Sequence record: NC_054910.1 | Reading direction: 5' to 3' (one strand) | Length of the DNA: 64,000 bases | DNA from: Escherichia phage EcNP1 | Shown: piece after piece, positions 9,677 through 17,803 of the stretch | Numbering within the stretch: the first letter of the stretch is position 1 | How the letters are laid out: the number at the start of each line of letters is the position of its first letter | Position numbers and translations under genes: made by a program | Notes under the pieces: generated by a model | The model's input: the letters and a program-made list of their open reading frames with translations, nothing else | Told to the model about the DNA's origin: nothing | Database searches by the model: none

Positions 9677-10090
9677 TTAGTAAATTGATTTACCATAGTA
9701 TTTGTACCAAGTAGGACGTTGAGCAATTTTTTCATCTAAGCATGCTTGACTTATCGCAATGGACGCTTCGTCCGGGACATAATTATTACGAAATTCGGCA
9801 GGGATGTCGGAAATATCCTGGACAGTCGTGTCCTTGATTTTGAAACCACGTTTCAAGCATTCAGCGATTAGCTCGATTTGACGTAAACGTAAAAATTCGA
9901 GTTTGTCGTAAAAGAATGTTACGTGACCTGTGCCTAATATAAATGTTGGAGAGATTTTAAAATCCTTTACACATTTACCGTTTTGAACATGTTTACGGAC
10001 TGCACCAAATACGCGTGGTAATTCACGATACTCAGCCATAAGATGTTGGTCGGCCAATTCAGAAACAAGTGTTAAATTGATACGGGTCAT
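9677..10090 (-). CDS. denV: endonuclease V, pyrimidine-dimer DNA glycosylase
   Basis: 137 aa from [29 protein letters not shown], near-identical to T4 endo V as recalled; GGAGG SD; track ORF has a 4-codon upstream extension. Confidence 0.95.
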
Positions 10091-10147
10091 AATTTCCTCC
10101 AAGTAGTTGATGAATGTATAGTATCAAAACCCTTGGAGGAAGTAAAC
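10091..10147 (-). promoter_or_regulatory. early promoter with -10 inside a hairpin
   Basis: GTTTAC-N18-TACTAT; inverted repeat TTCCTCCAAG/CTTGGAGGAA flanks the -10; second arm is the denV SD. Confidence 0.5.
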
Positions 10148-10148
10148 A

Positions 10149-10951
<803 letters not shown>

Positions 10952-11407
10952 TTAAAAGAGGTTGTTCATTATTCGGTAAAGTGAAGGACCCATCACATAT
11001 TGCCACTGAGTGCGAGGAATAAGAGCAAAAGCATCCATCTCTGGAATCATAACACCATCTTTATTTTCAAAATAAGACTCGCAATGGCAATTTCTAAACA
11101 TCTCATGCTCTACTGGAATCGTATAATAAAATAACTGAAGGTCTTTATTACTAGAATATTTAAATACACCTAGGTCTTCTAGAAGGTCTGGATTATAATT
11201 GCTAAAACCAGTCTCTTCTAAACATTCTCTTCGTGCTGCATCTAGTGCGTTTAAATCAGAATTTTCTACACGGCCTTTTGGAATATCCCAGCGATGTGCC
11301 ATCATTCCAGGCTTACGAGAACCAGTAACCCGTCCCATGAATAAATCTTTATCTTCTGTCATAAAGATAATACCAGCTGATAGTGTTTTCATTTTAATTT
11401 CCTGCAT
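10952..11407 (-). CDS. nudE: Nudix hydrolase
   Basis: 151 aa; Nudix box RRECLEETGF; T4 nudE (e.1) position. Confidence 0.8.
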   Translation of the reverse strand: MQEIKMKTLSAGIIFMTEDKDLFMGRVTGSRKPGMMAHRWDIPKGRVENSDLNALDAARRECLEETGFSNYNPDLLEDLGVFKYSSNKDLQLFYYTIPVEHEMFRNCHCESYFENKDGVMIPEMDAFALIPRTQWQYVMGPSLYRIMNNLF

Positions 11408-11877
11408 TCAGTGATAAAGTTATTTAAATTTTGAGTATATTTCTTTTCATCAAAAATCTTTTGTTGTCTGCGTAGCCGCCATGGCATTTCTATGAACGTG
11501 TACCATATCCCAGATAATATTGCTGCTGTAAAAATATTAACAAGTATGGTTAAAAGAATCCAATCTCCTATTCTGTCCATTGGATTTTTTATAAAAAAGT
11601 AAAATATGAATGATGTCACAGGAAGACTAATAATATACCACAGAATCATAATTTTATCTGTGAACCAATCAGCGTTCGTTAACTTAGCGCGACCATTATA
11701 AATACACACGAATTTATCATCTGTTGCAGTAGATGGCTTAACTGGTTGATATCCCATTCTAAACTCCCTAATTAACAAATTTTTCATATCTTCGGAACAG
11801 CCATTCCAGTCAACTCTATCAACTGGAATGCCATCATCCCCATCATCTAAATCATACCAGCGAGTTTTTAAAATCAT
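11389..11877 (-). CDS. 2-TM membrane protein, paralog family member A
   Basis: two hydrophobic helices, basic juxtamembrane block, C-terminus ...ITECRKLK. Confidence 0.55.
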   Translation of the reverse strand: MILKTRWYDLDDGDDGIPVDRVDWNGCSEDMKNLLIREFRMGYQPVKPSTATDDKFVCIYNGRAKLTNADWFTDKIMILWYIISLPVTSFIFYFFIKNPMDRIGDWILLTILVNIFTAAILSGIWYTFIEMPWRLRRQQKIFDEKKYTQNLNNFITECRKLK

Positions 11878-12236
11878 TTAATTTTCCTACAATCACTCAC
11901 AAACTCTTCCATTGATTCTTTTTCAATATAAGACATGTAGTTATTATATTCCTTTAATTGTATTTTGTAATCCTTTTTTCTTTGCCAATTTATTTTAAAA
12001 TTATCATAATGAAAATATAGCATGGTGCCAAAGAATGAAAATAATGAAATCGCTATAGTATAACGAAGTTCACTCCAAACCTCTGTTATAATTACTGTGC
12101 CGTCGATGTTTAAAATAAAACAGTCAATTAGCAATCCAATAAGACTACCCGCAAGAGCTGCAAATACTGACACAGCAAGAATTAATAGTGCCTCGGGAAA
12201 CGAATATTTGACTTTATTTAGTTTTGGCTTTTGCAT
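11874..12236 (-). CDS. 2-TM membrane protein, paralog family member B
   Basis: same architecture, C-terminus ...VSDCRKIK. Confidence 0.55.
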   Translation of the reverse strand: MQKPKLNKVKYSFPEALLILAVSVFAALAGSLIGLLIDCFILNIDGTVIITEVWSELRYTIAISLFSFFGTMLYFHYDNFKINWQRKKDYKIQLKEYNNYMSYIEKESMEEFVSDCRKIK

Positions 12237-12631
12237 CGTGATTCCTTAACAAATTTCATAATTTCATTAAATTCATACATATCTAGTTTAAGCTGGTGTT
12301 CCTTTTTAATCTTTTTACACTGAGCTTTCCATTCACGTACACGTTTACGATAATGCCTTCCTTGATACCAATATCCTACCCAATTTACAGGTACTAATAA
12401 AAATGGAACTACTAATGGAAGAATTAATACTGACAGAAATATTACACCAGATTCAATATCAGTCATAACGTCTATAACCATTCCAATAATCAATAGAATT
12501 ACAAATGATATAGCTGTCACAGGACCTATTAATACATCGGTAGAAATTATCTGGTGCTTTGGTTCATACTTCAAAGGTTTACTTGGAAGGTATAGTGATG
12601 GCTTTGACATATTCTCTACATTCCTTAACAA
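12218..12631 (-). CDS. 2-TM membrane protein, paralog family member C
   Basis: same architecture, C-terminus ...VKESRCKSQN. Confidence 0.55.
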   Translation of the reverse strand: MLRNVENMSKPSLYLPSKPLKYEPKHQIISTDVLIGPVTAISFVILLIIGMVIDVMTDIESGVIFLSVLILPLVVPFLLVPVNWVGYWYQGRHYRKRVREWKAQCKKIKKEHQLKLDMYEFNEIMKFVKESRCKSQN

Positions 12632-13193
12632 ATTTTTCTAGTAATAAATCGCTTTCAAAATTGGGATTTTCCACGAATTTATCAAAAAGATCATCAATAA
12701 TAGTCAAGATATTCCTTTTATTAAGAATACGCTTATTTTCATATTTTGTTTCAGAGTCAACTATAAGAGTAAAGAAATATTTCTTTCCCTGAAATTTTAC
12801 CGTAGTATCAATATAGAACAAATTTGACTTTTGTAAATTACGTTTAAACCATGCGTCACTTAAACTATAAACGCCAAGATAATCATAATCGTCATTTAAA
12901 TAACAAACTGTCCATTCAGGAGAAATGAAATCAGTAAATTCAACATCAAAATCACACGTCAATGAATGAATTGATTCAATACTGTTAATGAGTATTCCAG
13001 GACGTATTAAAGACTTTTTACCTCTAGAAAATCTTCCAGAAAGACTTTCATCAGTTTCATATGAAGACCCCCAATAGTAATTACGTCCTTCTGCCATACG
13101 TTTAAGAGCATTTAGTAATTGGTCTGGAACATCAACCTGTCTTTGGAACTCTTCAAACATTGAATTGAAATCACTTTGCATTTTCATTTTCAT
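12579..13193 (-). CDS. hypothetical protein
   Basis: 204-aa ORF; no motif recognised. Confidence 0.5.
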   Translation of the reverse strand: MKMKMQSDFNSMFEEFQRQVDVPDQLLNALKRMAEGRNYYWGSSYETDESLSGRFSRGKKSLIRPGILINSIESIHSLTCDFDVEFTDFISPEWTVCYLNDDYDYLGVYSLSDAWFKRNLQKSNLFYIDTTVKFQGKKYFFTLIVDSETKYENKRILNKRNILTIIDDLFDKFVENPNFESDLLLEKFVKECREYVKAITIPSK

Positions 13194-13214
13194 TCCTATT
13201 TACTCCAAGTATAA

Positions 13215-13228
13215 GGGGCCGAAGCCCC
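13215..13228 (-). terminator. GGGGC-UUCG-GCCCC hairpin
   Basis: perfect hairpin with UUCG tetraloop just downstream of the 13235 stop; same sequence recurs at 54032..54045. Confidence 0.45.
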
Positions 13229-13234
13229 TTATCA

Positions 13235-13828
13235 TTATTTCAGAGAATTAATGTATTCCTGAACATCGGCAGAGGTAGTTTCAACCCCGGAAATATTACC
13301 GTTAAAGGTTTCAACTCGAGCAAGAGTATCTTCAATATCAACCTTAGTTAGCGCTGCGATTTCAACTACATCATCAGCAGTACTAATTCCAAGGGCATTT
13401 GCCGCACGAGTTTCACGGATATATTCCAATTTAACTGCAAGTTCTTGACGAGCATCATCTAACTCAACTACTTTCTTGGCGATTTCAATTCGCATTTCAG
13501 CATAACCATCAGCTTTAGTAGTCAACTGCTCAGCTGTTCGACGATATAGTAAACCGAGCTTAGCATGCATTGTTACATCTTGACCTTCGGAAAGAAGTTT
13601 GCGAATTTCACGCTCTTTTGATTCGGCTTGTCGATTCTTTTCGATAACAAGTTCACGAATACGTTTTTCTTCATTAATAGATTTAACAGAAGCAGTTTTT
13701 AGGTCTTTAATTTTGTCAAGAAGTTTTGCTGCTGCAGCAGTATACTGTTCTTCAACAGATAGATTTTTAGCCATAGCAGAACCAAGTTTAGTGCGAATAA
13801 ACTCAACAATTTTCTTCAGTGTGTTCAT
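13235..13828 (-). CDS. coiled-coil protein (PspA-like architecture)
   Basis: 197 aa, predicted long helices with heptad-like K/E/R spacing; weak resemblance only. Confidence 0.45.
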
Positions 13829-13871
13829 AGTATTTCCTTAGGTTGATTAAAAATTAAAATCTGTGGAAGAA

Positions 13872-14402
13872 TTATATCATGCTATTTAAGAGATGTAAAC
13901 TATTTTTAATTTTACAAATTCGTTCAGCTTCTTCAACAGCGGCGGCGATAATGCTTTTAGCTATAGGAGTACTAATACTAGTAGCTTTTACACTTAACAC
14001 GATTTCTTTATCTTTACCAGGCCAACCCCACGATTTTTCACCGTGAGTGCCTTTAATTACAGCAGACACCTCAAGTGAGCATCCATTATCATATGTTTTT
14101 ACATTGACAACCCAAGGTTCACTTTTCTCAATCGGTTTCTCAATCGGTTTATCCCAGTAAATATTAAGAATACGTGGGACATCAAATTTGGCAGGACAAA
14201 TCTTAACTGTAAGACCTTCGCTTTCTAGCCAATTAATAAGAGGGCGTTCATACAGGCGACGATGTGGGCTTGGGATTCGACAAGCCTTATGTCCGTTGCT
14301 TGCGGCTTCACTAAGCTGTTCTAATACCTGCTTTTGCATTATTGATAAGATACCATCAAAAGATTTTTCGGAAGTTTCATTCAGTTCGGTATAAAGAGAC
14401 AT
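13872..14402 (-). CDS. hypothetical protein
   Basis: 176-aa ORF. Confidence 0.5.
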   Translation of the reverse strand: MSLYTELNETSEKSFDGILSIMQKQVLEQLSEAASNGHKACRIPSPHRRLYERPLINWLESEGLTVKICPAKFDVPRILNIYWDKPIEKPIEKSEPWVVNVKTYDNGCSLEVSAVIKGTHGEKSWGWPGKDKEIVLSVKATSISTPIAKSIIAAAVEEAERICKIKNSLHLLNSMI

Positions 14403-15612: not shown

Positions 15613-15643
15613 ACTAAAAAGCCCCAACCTTTCGGTCGGGGCT
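15613..15643 (-). terminator. rho-independent terminator (copy 1 of duplicated element)
   Basis: minus RNA GCCCCGACC-GAAA-GGUUGGGGC then UUUUU; 33-nt block identical to 16169..16199. Confidence 0.7.
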
Positions 15644-15650
15644 AAGAATG

Positions 15651-16094
15651 TTATTTGATTTGTTTAGCAGACCAAATGCGGTCTTTAATAATTTTTTGGA
15701 TGTCTTCAACATACTCTAGGTCATGAGCATGTGGGTTGTCTTTGAAACTATAAGCACGGGCTAACTTTTGGCCTTCGGTTTTGATTACTAAAAGCTCTTT
15801 AAGGATAGCTTCATATTTAGCGATAATTCCTTTAACAATATTTTTTTCTTGTGCAGCTTTAGGATCTGCTTTAGGAGCAGGTTTACCGGAAGGTTTTTCG
15901 AAAGCCGCACCAGTAGCAACCAGGCTTTTCCAGGCGGTGGTAACATAGTTACCCACAAAGCCTTCAGCTCTCATATCGTCGTAGAACTTGTACCTGGATT
16001 CGTCAGAAGCATCTTTATAAGAATATTTACCAGCTTTAATAGCAGCAGTTGCTACAGCGCGAACATCTGAAGCGGATGCTTCATTTAACACCAC
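15651..16094 (-). CDS. internal-protein-like protein, N-terminal capsid-targeting motif in a different frame
   Basis: track ORF starts at GTG; 29 nt upstream an SD+ATG opens MKSYAQF then stops; one extra T in the TTTT run would give MKSYAQFLNEVVLNEAS... Confidence 0.5.
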   Translation of the reverse strand: MVLNEASASDVRAVATAAIKAGKYSYKDASDESRYKFYDDMRAEGFVGNYVTTAWKSLVATGAAFEKPSGKPAPKADPKAAQEKNIVKGIIAKYEAILKELLVIKTEGQKLARAYSFKDNPHAHDLEYVEDIQKIIKDRIWSAKQIK

Positions 16095-16161
16095 TTCATT
16101 TAAAATTGAGCATATGATTTCATCTTATTTCCTGTTTTAATTCGTGATTTAATACACTACT

Positions 16162-16169
16162 ATATTTAT
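16162..16169 (-). promoter_or_regulatory. T4-type late promoter TATAAATA
   Basis: TATAAATA on minus strand about 38 nt upstream of the ATG at 16123, abutting the upstream terminator. Confidence 0.5.
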
Positions 16170-16199
16170 ACTAAAAAGCCCCAACCTTTCGGTCGGGGC
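16169..16199 (-). terminator. rho-independent terminator (copy 2 of duplicated element)
   Basis: identical hairpin plus U-run to 15613..15643. Confidence 0.7.
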
Positions 16200-16200
16200 T

Positions 16201-16876: not shown

Positions 16877-16952
16877 ATTGGTCGAGGCAGTAGGGATCGA
16901 ACCTACGACCTAGGACTTAGAAGGTCCTTGCTCTTCCTTCTGAGCTATGCCT
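16877..16952 (-). tRNA. tRNA-Arg (anticodon UCU)
   Basis: hand-folded 76-nt cloverleaf, loop CUUCUAA, T-loop UUCGAUC, encoded CCA. Confidence 0.85.
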
Positions 16953-16956
16953 CGGA

Positions 16957-17031
16957 TTTGGCGGACGTGATAGGATTCGAACCTATAACCAATCGCTTAA
17001 CAGGCGATCGCTCTGCCATTGAGCTACACAT
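16957..17031 (-). tRNA. tRNA-Asn (anticodon GUU)
   Basis: hand-folded 75-nt cloverleaf, loop CUGUUAA, T-loop UUCGAAU, encoded CCA. Confidence 0.8.
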
Positions 17032-17035
17032 CCAA

Positions 17036-17122
17036 ATTGGTGGGGAGTGATGGAGTCGAACCACCCGAGTCGCAATGACAATGGATTTACAGTCCACACC
17101 GCTACCTCTACGGAATAACTCC
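17036..17122 (-). tRNA. tRNA-Tyr (anticodon GUA)
   Basis: 87 nt, class II with long variable arm, loop CUGUAAA, acceptor GGGGAGU/ACUCCCC, encoded CCA. Confidence 0.8.
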
Positions 17123-17131
17123 CCAAATTAA

Positions 17132-17206
17132 TTTGGTGGCCCTGGGTGGAATTGAACCACCATCTGGCGATTATGAGTCGCTTGCTTGAACCTTCCAGCT
17201 ACAGGG
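17132..17206 (-). tRNA. tRNA with anticodon CAU (Ile2 or Met)
   Basis: 75 nt, loop CUCAUAA, T-arm GGUGG-UUCAAUU-CCACC, encoded CCA; T4 carries a CAU Ile tRNA here. Confidence 0.8.
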
Positions 17207-17207
17207 C

Positions 17208-17283
17208 CTTGGTGCTGATTGACGGAATCGAACCGCCGACCTTCTCATTACAAGTGAGTTGCTCTACCTACTGAGCTAAATCA
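17208..17283 (-). tRNA. tRNA-Thr (anticodon UGU)
   Basis: 76 nt, loop CUUGUAA, encoded CCA. Confidence 0.85.
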
Positions 17284-17288
17284 GCAAA

Positions 17289-17378
17289 ACTGGCGGAGGC
17301 GATAGGATTCGAACCTATGAGTCGCCGGAGCGACTGCCGGTTTTCAAGACCGGTGCATTAAACCACTCTGCCACGCCT
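17289..17378 (-). tRNA. tRNA-Ser (anticodon UGA)
   Basis: 90 nt, class II long variable arm, loop CUUGAAA, encoded CCA. Confidence 0.85.
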
Positions 17379-17380
17379 CC

Positions 17381-17454
17381 AGTCTCCATACAAGGATTTG
17401 AACCTTGGACCTCCTGATCCCAAATCAGGCGCTCTACCAAACTGAGCTACACGG
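17381..17454 (-). tRNA. tRNA-Pro (anticodon UGG)
   Basis: 74 nt, loop UUUGGGA, T-arm CAAGG-UUCAAAU-CCUUG, CCA not encoded. Confidence 0.8.
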
Positions 17455-17464
17455 AGTAAATTAA

Positions 17465-17540
<76 letters not shown>

Positions 17541-17543
17541 AAA

Positions 17544-17630
17544 TTTGGTGCGAGAAGTGGGACTCGAACCCACAAGGAAATCATTCCGCAGCATTTTAAG
17601 TGCTGTGCCTTTACCAATTTGACCATTCTC
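17544..17630 (-). tRNA. tRNA-Leu (anticodon UAA)
   Basis: 87 nt, class II long variable arm, loop CUUAAAA, encoded CCA. Confidence 0.85.
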
Positions 17631-17631
17631 G

Positions 17632-17704
17632 CGCTGGGAATAAAGGACTCGAACCTTTGCATCCTGGAATCAAAATCCAGTGCCTTACCAACTTGGCTAA
17701 TTCC
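17632..17704 (-). tRNA. tRNA-Gln (anticodon UUG)
   Basis: 73 nt, begins UGGGAAUUAGCCAAGUUGGUAAGGCA as in T4 tRNA-Gln, CCA not encoded. Confidence 0.85.
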
Positions 17705-17803
17705 CAATTATTAACAAAGGCTCTCAAACAAGAACCCTTGATGATAGAGGGTATTAATCAGTGCGGTATGAGTTAATAATAACAAATAATTCTTAAAGCA
17801 TAT

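Follow-up and report, generated by a model that had tools for sequence, protein, structure and literature searches.

Tequatrovirus orthologs of T4 genes e.2 to e.4 and the C-terminal motif at their junctions

Next to the Nudix hydrolase gene nudE of Escherichia phage EcNP1 (NC_054910.1), three consecutive minus-strand open reading frames encode small proteins that look alike. Each has two transmembrane (TM) helices, a basic block, and a similar C-terminal tail. Are these genes tandem duplicates, and what might they do? An earlier note on this DNA took them to be three paralogs of no known family, and proposed superinfection exclusion or envelope targeting as typical functions of such a set. 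We analyzed these genes and their surroundings in a window of 64,000 nucleotides, which is the whole stretch of DNA under study.

The region matches Escherichia phage Nami, which is a Tequatrovirus, at 100% identity, and about 500 Tequatrovirus records match it at 90-98%. By sequence comparison, the three reading frames are the Tequatrovirus orthologs of T4 e.2, e.3, and e.4. From e.5 to nudE, the genes follow the T4 map in their order, strand, and overlaps, and the proteins are 75-88% identical to those of T4. The T4 counterparts in UniProt are Y06M (P32273), Y06N (P32274), and Y06O (P39222), respectively; their old names are msp7, msp6, and msp5 (GenBank L13089). The e.2 protein matches PHROG 2203 (E = 2.5e-78 over residues 1-160) and is 74.7% identical to its T4 counterpart across residues 1-162 (tblastn), and the Pfam family PF26896 (Phage_T4_Y06M) is present on all 82 of the e.2 homologs that we found. 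The e.3 protein matches PHROG 2330 (E = 9.8e-59) and is 82-85% identical to T4 e.3; its 46 close homologs are all from Tequatrovirus-like phages. The e.4 protein matches PHROG 2604 (E = 2e-70) and is 88% identical to T4 e.4, and PF26873 (Phage_T4_Y06O) is named on the e.4 portion of a fusion protein from phage UFV05. Using phmmer with e.4 against 1.84e9 representative proteins, we found 6 matches, all of which were e.4 or its deletion or fusion variants; neither e.3 nor any non-phage relative was among them.

The proteins thus do belong to known families, in PHROG and in newer releases of Pfam. They are long-catalogued T4 reading frames and add no new family. The earlier note had allowed that they might be orthologs of characterized T4 e.2-e.8 proteins. 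Orthologs they are, but T4 e.2-e.4 are themselves uncharacterized, so the orthology gives no function. We found no meaningful matches for e.2-e.4 in NCBIfam, PADLOC, or a copy of Pfam without the PF26896 model. A Foldseek search of the PDB with the models of e.2 and e.5 gave nothing at E < 0.04, and TM-scores were under 0.35. Literature searches on e.2-e.6 with nudE led to supplementary tables only, with no main-text discussion found, and the HIDEN-SEQ paper on T4 does not mention e.2-e.6.

As the earlier note had described, the genes are consecutive and overlapping, and they adjoin nudE: in the open reading frame listing, they span 11389-11877 (162 amino acids), 11874-12236 (120 amino acids), and 12218-12631. 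The overlaps are 4 nt between e.2 and e.3 and 19 nt between e.3 and e.4. The start of e.4 is most likely the ATG at 12610 (giving 130 amino acids, beginning MSKPSLYLPSKP) rather than the TTG at 12631, because the ATG agrees with the T4 annotation and with conservation across genera. Upstream, the string begins with e.5, which shares 32 nt with the start of e.4. At the other end, the last gene is nudE. It likely starts at the ATG at 11392, which overlaps the stop codon of e.2 as ATGA, and its Shine-Dalgarno sequence (AGGAAA) lies inside the tail codons of e.2. The genes e.5, e.4, e.3, e.2, and nudE, in that order, form an overlapping string whose translation is presumably coupled (Table 1).

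Table 1. Positions of the genes and sequence elements discussed in the text (a dot marks features without a strand; SD, Shine-Dalgarno sequence)
Feature	Position	Strand	Details
nudE (Nudix hydrolase)	10952..11392	-	Pfam NUDIX, E = 1.9e-13; Nami annotation
e.2 ortholog	11389..11877	-	162 aa; ORF list, PHROG 2203, T4 tblastn
e.3 ortholog	11874..12236	-	120 aa; ORF list, hydropathy, PHROG 2330
e.4 ortholog	12218..12610	-	130 aa from ATG at 12610; PHROG 2604, PF26873
e.5 ortholog	12579..13193	-	204 aa, soluble, without TM helix; PHROG 2607, PF26876 (Phage_T4_Y06P)
e.2 tail codons (F I T E C R)	11401..11418	-	
e.3 tail codons (F V S D C R)	11886..11903	-	
e.4 degenerate tail codons (F V K E S R)	12236..12253	-	contain SD AAGGAA; reach ATG of e.3
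e.5 tail codons (F V K E C R)	12615..12632	-	contain SD AAGGAA for e.4
16-nt exact direct repeat, copy 1 (AAATTTGTTAAGGAAT, coding strand)	12241..12256	.	e.4/e.3 junction; repeat search
16-nt exact direct repeat, copy 2	12620..12635	.	e.5/e.4 junction; the pair brackets e.4
~62-nt imperfect direct repeat	11843..11903	.	e.3/e.2 junction: tail, SD, ATGA, first ~12 codons of e.2
~62-nt repeat, partner	11359..11418	.	e.2/nudE junction; the pair brackets e.2
10-mer TCCTGTGACA, copy 1	11614..11623	-	Pro-Val-Thr, TM1 of e.2
10-mer TCCTGTGACA, copy 2	12515..12524	-	Pro-Val-Thr, TM1 of e.4
Sigma-70-like early-type promoter, best match	13871..13899	-	upstream of e.6; 11/12 consensus plus extended TG
G+C-rich hairpin (ATAAGGGGC-CGAA-GCCCCTTAT)	13211..13232	.	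between e.6 and e.5
Two late-promoter consensus boxes (TATAAATA)	10929..10949	-	just upstream of lysozyme gene e

Hydropathy analysis bears out the two TM helices and the basic juxtamembrane block in each protein. In e.2, a soluble N-terminal domain of about 75 residues precedes helices at residues 76-96 and 106-129 (DNA 11590-11652 and 11491-11562), the basic block, and the tail. The e.3 protein has a basic N-terminus (MQKPKL), a strong helix at residues 16-42 (DNA 12111-12191), a weaker one at residues 59-76 (DNA 12009-12062; mean Kyte-Doolittle score 1.2-1.5), and then the basic block and the tail. The e.4 protein begins with MSKPSL; its helices at residues 26-47 and 55-80 (DNA 12470-12535 and 12371-12448) are followed by a very basic block and a degenerate tail, FVKESRCKSQN. 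The blocks after the second helices of e.2, e.3, and e.4 are WRLRRQQK, WQRKKDYK, and GRHYRKRVREWK, respectively. This charge distribution fits a topology with both termini in the cytoplasm (N-in/C-in), which we predict for all three proteins, with periplasmic loops of just 7-16 residues. In the AlphaFold2 (AF2) model of e.2 (pLDDT of 71), TM2 runs on into the tail as one long helix. The AF2 model of e.5 has a pLDDT of 63.

Are the three membrane proteins paralogs? We compared family alignments with hhalign, using shuffled columns as nulls and unrelated T4 membrane proteins (Imm, Imm.1, Sp, and holin T) as controls. The e.3 and e.4 families align collinearly with a probability of about 91% and E of about 1e-6, which are approximate values as the family alignments were shallow (4-8 sequences, Neff of about 2). 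Without the tail, their score was 26.0 versus 11.1 ± 2.1 for shuffles, and none of the 120 shuffles was as good. The match between e.2 and e.3 is confined to the 18-residue tail (E = 2e-5), and without it the score fell to the background (13.6; 6 of 120 shuffles as good). The comparison of e.2 with e.4 was also at background without the tails (11.7; 37/120), and even with the tails kept. Simpler searches gave no sign of paralogy at the BLAST level: tblastn with each protein hit one place per genome, and pairwise BLASTP among the three found just the e.2/e.3 tail (E = 0.004), with everything else at 0.04 or worse. These profile comparisons largely establish that e.3 and e.4 are distant tandem paralogs, and that e.2 is a protein of another kind, which has an additional soluble domain at its N-terminus and shares with them just a short C-terminal module. 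The proposal of three paralogs is therefore supported for e.3 and e.4, which are similar beyond the tail, but not for e.2, which has only the tail in common with e.3 and nothing in common with e.4.

Alternatively, all three proteins, and perhaps the ORF133c-like protein of Mosigvirus, could descend by tandem duplication from one ancestor with two TM helices, if the TM segments diverged past detection, the tail alone stayed recognizable, and e.2 acquired its N-terminal domain later. This would explain the architecture that they have in common (a TM hairpin, an aromatic residue with a basic block, a helix, and the tail), their adjacency on one strand, and the match of e.3 with e.2 in the tail (E = 2e-5). 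Within the e.2 family itself, the TM segments vary strongly, so a loss of signal is plausible. Also, the 10-mer TCCTGTGACA, which has just two copies in the window (0.05 expected), encodes Pro-Val-Thr in TM1 of both e.2 and e.4. However, for two genes of this size, chance alone would give about 0.2 shared 10-mers, and apart from the tail, e.2 matches neither of the other two above background; against e.4, this is so even with the tail. Nor does a shared tail show that whole proteins descend from one ancestor, because the soluble e.5 and an unrelated protein of Dhakavirus also have it. We give a single ancestor only a modest chance.

The C-terminal tails are as the earlier note had quoted them, and their similarity is far from chance. 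The motif [LMI]xxF[IV]x[ED]CR is found at the C-termini of e.2, e.3, and e.5, and e.4 has a degenerate form (FVKESRC). The tail of e.5 that carries the motif is LEKFVKECREYV. In all six frames of 163.7 kb of this genome, the strict form F[IV]x[ED]CR has 3 matches, all of them C-termini (those of e.2, e.3, and e.5), against a mean of 0.2 in shuffled sequence. The genome is densely packed, and the motif is missing from every other gene junction in these 163.7 kb. In related phages, the same tail is found on an unrelated Dhakavirus protein at the position of e.5 and on a further protein with two TM helices in Mosigvirus. (Our e.5 alignment mixed two unrelated bodies, the e.5 of Tequatrovirus and Mosigvirus and the Dhakavirus protein, so we used only its result for the tail.) A tblastn search with a 24-residue consensus tail found just e.3-type tails, in T4-like phages.

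The three membrane proteins are not the only ones with this tail: the soluble e.5 upstream has it too.

The junctions that encode the tails are also direct repeats. The 16-nt exact repeat brackets e.4; its two junctions have a local alignment score of 32, versus 15.8 ± 2.3 for shuffles (0/300 as good). The imperfect repeat of about 62 nt brackets e.2, with a score of 31 versus 16.8 ± 2.9 (again 0/300). Natural variants in other phages correspond to these repeats. Phage T2 lacks e.2 and has exactly one hybrid copy of the repeat at the junction; Pu-Krd-SF5 also lacks e.2 and has a hybrid junction. Some Dhakavirus-like contigs lack e.4 and have the hybrid junction AAAGAGGTTCAAAATG. The fusion protein of phage UFV05 is a natural e.4::e.2 fusion whose crossover point is the 10-mer. 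We attribute the absence of e.2 from T2, and of e.4 from the Dhakavirus-like contigs, to recombination between the flanking repeats. Such recombination would remove or add whole genes in frame and leave the coupling unbroken. These observations largely establish that the junctions, each comprising a tail, a Shine-Dalgarno sequence, and a start codon, are direct repeats that bracket e.4 and e.2 and are sites of whole-gene exchange.

Modular shuffling of this kind is known from the promoter-early stem-loop elements (PeSLs) of T4-type phages (Arbiol et al. 2010, PMC2839356; Comeau et al. 2014, PMC4122927). The boundary sequences of PeSLs, which include the Shine-Dalgarno sequence and the start codon, are crossover sites where accessory genes are exchanged cleanly in hyperplastic regions (PMC2839356, PMC4122927). 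The variants of T2, Dhakavirus, and UFV05 behave similarly; in T2 and the Dhakavirus-like contigs, genes are gained or lost by crossover in flanking repeats that include these two elements. In contrast to PeSLs, the e.5-nudE junctions have neither promoter nor stem-loop and the genes overlap by 4-32 nt; the repeat lies within coding sequence and also specifies a conserved C-terminal peptide; and the cassettes stay inside one translationally coupled string.

Given this arrangement, the tails could resemble each other as a by-product of RNA constraint, namely the coupled translation initiation of the next gene, with a peptide that has no function. The codons of the motif are always followed by the next start codon within about 25 nt, they include the Shine-Dalgarno sequence (AAGGAA in the K-E codons or AGGAAA in the R-K codons), stop and start codons overlap as ATGA, and all of the natural deletion variants retain a hybrid junction. 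But the motif codons that hold the Shine-Dalgarno sequence differ from gene to gene, and this sequence does not account for the F, the I/V, the C, or the L at -3. In the protein at the e.5 position of Dhakavirus and Yersinia phage P8, FIAECRE is kept while the Shine-Dalgarno sequence (AAAGGGG or AAAGAGG) lies about 15 nt downstream. The absence of the motif from the other junctions in 163.7 kb also speaks against this explanation, as does codon usage. Among 33 distinct DNA versions of the tail, Cys is TGT in 16 and TGC in 13; all of CGT, CGC, CGA, AGA, and AGG are used for Arg; and Leu at -3 is CTT, TTA, or CTA. Because the tail codons vary synonymously, the tail peptide appears to be under selection. 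The e.2 family has 15 invariant positions, 6 of them in the tail (F, I, E, C, R, and K), while its TM helices are free to vary. Nor can the common peptide be put down to recent gene conversion, because junctions of different classes are dissimilar in DNA. The C-terminal motifs of a compact operon necessarily overlap the next ribosome-binding site, so constraints on RNA and on peptide are not fully separable; still, we think it unlikely that RNA constraint is the whole explanation.

When are these genes expressed? The T4 record L13089 has annotated -35 and -10 boxes at the same place as the early-type promoter upstream of e.6, which is likely the source of a transcript that runs through e.5 to nudE. 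That record also has a putative stem-loop at the same place as the hairpin between e.6 and e.5. No strong promoter or hairpin was found at the e.5-nudE junctions, and the sites upstream of e.6 and of e.5 are the sole ones of this kind. Late-promoter boxes (TATAAATA) are absent upstream of e.2-e.5. An Rfam search of 9-18 kb found the tRNA cluster alone. For T4, the RNA of e.2-e.5 was classed as early and all four proteins were detected (PMC9697503, supplements 4 and 6). In a dCas13d knockdown study of T4, e.2-e.5 were classed as "Not Fit" (PMC11879866, supplement 15). This is weak evidence that the phage tolerates their knockdown without losing fitness in the laboratory, because the same table also scores the lysozyme gene e, which is essential, as "Not Fit" (PMC11879866).

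The tail is predicted to be an amphipathic helix that faces the cytoplasm and has L, F, I/V, and C along the same side. In the AF2 monomer of e.2, the tail is predicted to make no intramolecular contacts, and its pLDDT is about 50. From its conservation, predicted helicity, and topology, we infer that it acts as a docking helix. The tail would be a shared docking element and the TM hairpins would be membrane anchors. Early in infection, the set would recruit to the inner membrane a single cytoplasmic partner that is common to all of them. This partner might be a host factor or the tails of the fellow members, e.5 included. The role would be accessory and host-dependent, with components that are individually dispensable. 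Taken as a whole, our account (orthologs of T4 e.2-e.4, of which e.3 and e.4 are paralogs, exchange at junction repeats, and a tail that serves for docking) seems to us moderately likely to be correct. A further possibility, which we consider doubtful, is that the tail module is a dual-coded linker: a coupling ribosome-binding site as RNA, a recombination site as DNA, and a cytoplasmic docking helix as peptide. Just as doubtfully, the site would let T-even phages move accessory genes into and out of the coupled string, the peptide would plug any protein of the string, whether soluble or anchored in the membrane, into one assembly or onto one host target at the inner membrane, and the module would be the counterpart of a PeSL within coding sequence, with its own tag for protein interaction.

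The function proposed by the earlier note was superinfection exclusion or envelope targeting. The proteins would then act at the inner membrane, in the manner of Imm, against incoming phage DNA or envelope processes. Imm of T4 is an immunity protein of 83 amino acids with two TM helices. Like Imm, the e.2-e.4 proteins are small, early, inner-membrane accessory proteins of T-even phages with two TM helices; they are encoded in a variable region, are singly dispensable, and are patchily distributed among relatives, as one would expect of Imm-type proteins. Unlike them, Imm has neither a long cytoplasmic tail nor FIxECR, and there is no profile similarity: hhalign scores against this phage's own Imm were 12.8-18.7, which is inside the shuffle background, and those against its Imm, Imm.1, and Sp were 8-19, also background. 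No PADLOC model is similar to these proteins, and T4-type phages already have Imm and Sp. The periplasmic loops are just 7-16 residues, and the sole strongly conserved element is cytoplasmic and is common to the soluble e.5. We consider exclusion quite improbable.

That these are holin- or antiholin-like proteins that time lysis with the nearby endolysin gene e is very improbable and is already weakly refuted: they resemble class II holins in overall size, topology (two TM helices, N-in/C-in, from hydropathy and charge), and charged cytoplasmic C-terminal region, and their genes are about 0.5-1.7 kb from e, but the late-promoter boxes serve e alone, e.2-e.4 are early (as the T4 RNA is), dispensable, outside the lysis cassette, and often lost without replacement, they have no Pfam holin match at E ≤ 1 and do not resemble holin T, this T holin is itself present in the phage, with rI and rIII encoded elsewhere, and functional holins that are made early would be lethal.

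What is new is a selected peptide motif that is common to four or five otherwise unrelated neighbors and that coincides with the repeats at gene-exchange junctions. The motif is a concrete and testable handle on the T4 gene block e.2-e.5. If the tail is a shared interaction tag, then the exchange of accessory genes would keep both translational coupling and membership in the assembly, and the tag would lead to a common partner that could reveal the function of e.2-e.5.

Besides correcting the claim of paralogy, our analysis flags several faults of annotation. The e.4 gene is unannotated in the GenBank record of this phage (Nami). In the T4 reference, e.2 is a pseudogene: two frameshifts between TM1 and TM2 break it in two (also in T4T), whereas here it is intact, with 162 amino acids. 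In GenBank, e.3, e.4, and e.5 proteins have product names such as "sulfurtransferase" or "phosphoserine phosphatase," which are unsupported: we found no such match in Pfam or NCBIfam at E ≤ 1. They look like annotation errors that have been propagated. Foldseek also returned a chance-level match (E = 7.4) to the TM domain of the E. coli rhodanese YgaP; we speculate that this likeness may be the origin of the "sulfurtransferase" label.

Over positions 10900-13300, the sequence matches Escherichia phage vB_EcoM_Nami (MZ502380, Tequatrovirus) at 100% identity and about 500 further T4-like records at 90-98%. We assigned ORF names and order against the T4 reference map. Given this match, the three small membrane-protein genes are almost certainly T4 e.2, e.3, and e.4. 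These were originally deposited as msp7, msp6, and msp5, respectively (GenBank L13089), are now Y06M, Y06N, and Y06O in UniProt, and form PHROG families 2203, 2330, and 2604. Newer Pfam families cover e.2 (Phage_T4_Y06M), e.4 (Phage_T4_Y06O), and the soluble neighbor e.5 (Phage_T4_Y06P); our local Pfam search was blank for these three because the release searched lacks those models. An earlier note on this DNA recognized no known family, which is incorrect. It also raised orthology with characterized T4 genes among e.2-e.8: the orthology holds, but e.2, e.3, and e.4 are themselves known yet uncharacterized.

Coordinates of genes and sequence features (window positions, except for split e.2)
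Feature	Position	Strand	Basis or remark
denV	9677-10102	-	T4 map
internal-protein gene	between denV and e	-	T4 map
e (lysozyme)	10427-10915	-	T4 map
nudE	10952-11392/11407	-	T4 map
e.2	11389-11877	-	T4 map
e.3	11874-12236	-	T4 map
e.4	12218-12610	-	T4 map
e.5	12579-13193	-	T4 map
e.6	13235-13828	-	T4 map
best early-type promoter match	13899-13871		upstream of e.6
stable hairpin ATAAGGGGC-CGAA-GCCCCTTAT	13211-13232		between e.6 and e.5
exact 16-mer direct repeat (coding strand AAATTTGTTAAGGAAT)	12241-12256 and 12620-12635		brackets e.4
imperfect ~62-nt repeat	11843-11903 and 11359-11418		brackets e.2; 0/300 shuffles score as well
split e.2 (loci from other phages)	L003 3492-3961 (T4 NC_000866 67491-67960); L027 1578-2065		T4, T4T

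GenBank record MZ502380 leaves e.4 unannotated and labels e.3 “putative sulfurtransferase,” e.5 “putative phosphoserine phosphatase,” and e.6 “host specificity protein”; domain searches (Pfam, NCBIfam) gave no support for these labels. Elsewhere, the record has long stretches of implausible labels, such as about ten “thioredoxin” genes in a row, and a “molybdenum ABC transporter” label adjoining modA/modB.

The feature is real and its anatomy was rightly described, with overlapping genes, two transmembrane (TM) helices, and a basic block in all three ORFs. The overlaps are 19 nt for e.4/e.3, 4 nt (ATGA) for e.3/e.2, and ATGA for e.2/nudE. Hydropathy, which addresses the topology check that the note proposed, gives two hydrophobic helices per protein, the weakest being the second helix of e.3. 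We predict an N-in/C-in topology from the basic N-termini, the short loops of acidic or neutral character, and the strongly basic block after TM2. In the AlphaFold2 model of e.2 (pLDDT 71), a small alpha/beta domain at the N-terminus is followed by a TM hairpin, with TM2 running on as a single long helix up to the C-terminus. The most likely start of e.4 is the ATG at 12610 rather than the TTG at 12631, judging by how T4 is annotated and by the conserved N-terminus MSKPSLYLPSKP.

The main signal is the C-terminal tail ([LMI]xxF[IV]x[ED]CR), and it is wider than the three membrane proteins for which it was claimed. A six-frame scan of 163.7 kb of Nami sequence (the window and two flanking pieces) finds the strict form F[IV]x[ED]CR 3 times, versus 0.2 in shuffled DNA. 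All three occurrences are C-termini, of e.5 (a soluble 204-aa protein), e.3, and e.2; e.4 has a degenerate FVKESRC. In other genera, the tail is found at the ends of e.2, e.3, and e.4 as well, and Mosigvirus has a further two-TM protein with it (RB69ORF133c type, ...LENFIKECRGK). The Dhakavirus/Yersinia-phage protein in the e.5 position also ends in the tail; its body is unrelated to that of Tequatrovirus e.5, and BLASTP aligns just 15 tail residues. Members of the e.2 family are 29-97% identical and share 15 invariant positions, 6 of them in the tail (F, I, E, C, R, K); their TM helices, by contrast, are highly variable.

A second tandem family with a C-terminal motif lies immediately downstream of e.3 in Mosigvirus, Yersinia phage P8, and Dhakavirus (loci L006 2857-3651, L007 3236-4257, and L008 3736-4981). 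Its 3-6 small soluble ORFs (65-101 aa; RB69ORF136c-139c type) all end in W[VF]SSS..C and a stop (GAWVSSSALC, GGWVSSSSEC, SWVSSSYEC, FWFSSSMSC, IWYPSSC).

A purely RNA-level origin of the tail is a rival reading: in each case its codons coincide with the translation-initiation region of the following gene, with the Shine-Dalgarno AAGGAA within the K-E codons (e.5>e.4 and e.4>e.3) or AGGAAA within the R-K codons (e.3>e.2 and e.2>nudE). But across 33 distinct DNA versions of the tail, TGT and TGC encode Cys with about equal frequency, Arg is encoded by five codons drawn from both of its codon blocks, and the hydrophobic residue at -3 is CTT, TTA, CTA, ATG, or ATH. The Shine-Dalgarno also shifts relative to the motif, and is downstream of it in the Dhakavirus e.5-position protein. 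The 163.7-kb scan found the motif at no other gene junction of the genome, and junctions of different classes share no significant DNA similarity. These observations argue for selection on the peptide as well, and we lean towards a function at the peptide level. L(-3), F(0), I/V(+1), and C(+4) may form one face of an amphipathic helix.

Are the three genes paralogs, as the note stated? BLASTP among them finds only the e.2/e.3 tail (E 0.004), and tblastn places each protein at a single location per genome. Family alignments were built from sequences of Tequatrovirus, Mosigvirus, Dhakavirus, and a Yersinia phage and compared by hhalign; column-shuffled alignments and unrelated T4 membrane proteins served as nulls. 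e.3 matches e.4 with a score of 41.8 (probability 91%, E ~1e-6; shuffles 11.8 +/- 2.2), and the global alignment is collinear through an N-terminal MxKPxL, TM1, TM2, the basic block, and the tail. Without the last ~15 residues the score is 26.0 (shuffles 11.1 +/- 2.1; 0/120 as good). Because collinear similarity persists without the tail, e.3 and e.4 are quite probably old tandem duplicates. Full three-way paralogy fares worse: e.3 and e.2 align over just 18 tail residues (E 2e-5) and score at background without them, and e.2 versus e.4 is at background even with tails kept. The note's paralogy claim is only partly right: these alignments support it for e.3/e.4 but not for e.2.

As for function, NCBIfam and PADLOC searches gave no matches for these genes, and the e.2 and e.5 models had no structural neighbors. 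Among 1.84e9 proteins, e.4 has just six representative clusters, all from T4-like phages. In our best, tentative reading, the TM hairpins would be membrane anchors and the conserved cytoplasmic tail a common docking helix, through which e.5, e.4, e.3, and e.2 might, early in infection, co-assemble or all bind the same partner at the inner membrane; their role would be accessory and host-dependent. This specific docking model is doubtful. Imm-like exclusion or a holin-like function would be alternatives for such two-TM proteins, but Imm, Imm.1, Sp, and holin T from the same phage score 8-19 against these families with hhalign, which is background.

No late-promoter box (TATAAATA) was found upstream of e.2-e.5, and two lie immediately upstream of e. 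The hairpin between e.6 and e.5 forms a C(UUCG)G tetraloop on the transcribed strand. Because no T-run follows, it is more likely an RNA stabilizer or processing site than a terminator. The old T4 record (L13089) annotates a promoter and a hairpin at matching positions. In T4, e.2-e.5 are of the early RNA class and all four proteins were detected, with e.4 and e.5 early, e.2 middle, and e.3 late (PMC9697503 supplements). Knockdown of each of e.2-e.5 with dCas13d was “Not Fit” (PMC11879866 supplement), but this is weak evidence for dispensability because the essential gene e was also “Not Fit” (same supplement).

Judging from its relatives, the block is evidently dispensable and prone to recombination. 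The note had proposed checking the distribution: the region matches about 500 T4-like records, and e.2 or e.4 is missing from some relatives. About 50 of ~500 Tequatrovirus-level records have e.3 and e.4 with no e.2 match, and in T2 and Pu-Krd-SF5, e.3 is joined directly to nudE via a single hybrid junction (...GATTGCAGGAAATTAAAATGAAAACAC...). Dhakavirus-like IMG/VR contigs have either e.5-like > e.4 > e.3 or, without e.4, the hybrid junction AAAGAGGTTCAAAATG and e.3. An in-frame e.4(1-32)::e.2(88-162) fusion with e.3 removed occurs in phage UFV05 and in four other contigs; the fusion point is a 10-mer, TCCTGTGACA, found just twice in the window, once in TM1 of e.2 and once in TM1 of e.4. Natural relatives thus show the products predicted from the junction repeats. 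The ~62-nt repeat continues into the opening ~12 codons of e.2 and of nudE, which read it in different frames; this marks it as a footprint at the DNA level. Recombination at these repeats is probably the mechanism of the precise indels, and would explain how genes are lost or gained with coupling kept. Such clean cassette gain and loss resembles the PeSL-mediated modular shuffling of T4-type phages (PMC2839356, PMC4122927), but these repeats are coding and have no promoter or stem-loop. So far as the searched literature shows, the shared tail/junction module and its association with clean cassette indels have drawn no comment; their interest is modest and mainly for specialists.

In T4 and T4T, two compensating frameshifts between TM1 and TM2 split e.2, and annotations give either a 102-aa e.2 or e.2a/e.2b. 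Because of these frameshifts, “e.2” in T4 proteomics is a fragment with a single TM helix, which makes T4 a poor choice for modeling intact e.2.

Public metagenomic assemblies contain further e.4 derivatives (P0174, P0176), among them a 69-aa form that keeps the N-terminus and tail but has lost both TM helices through in-frame deletion, and a 97-aa chimera with unrelated sequence beyond residue 36. Downstream of the e.x block is a minus-strand cluster of ten tRNAs (16882-17706; Rfam RF00005), one of which (17043-17122) barely exceeds the gathering threshold. Between the e.8 region and this cluster, two identical 24-nt G+C-rich hairpins (AGCCCCGACCGAAAGGTTGGGGCT then a T-run; 15620-15643 and 16177-16200, minus strand) bracket an ORF (~15651-16124), and a TATAAATA box is located at 16163-16170. 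The arrangement resembles a PeSL-type cassette, and the ORF content of phage KMB39 differs from that of Nami precisely there.
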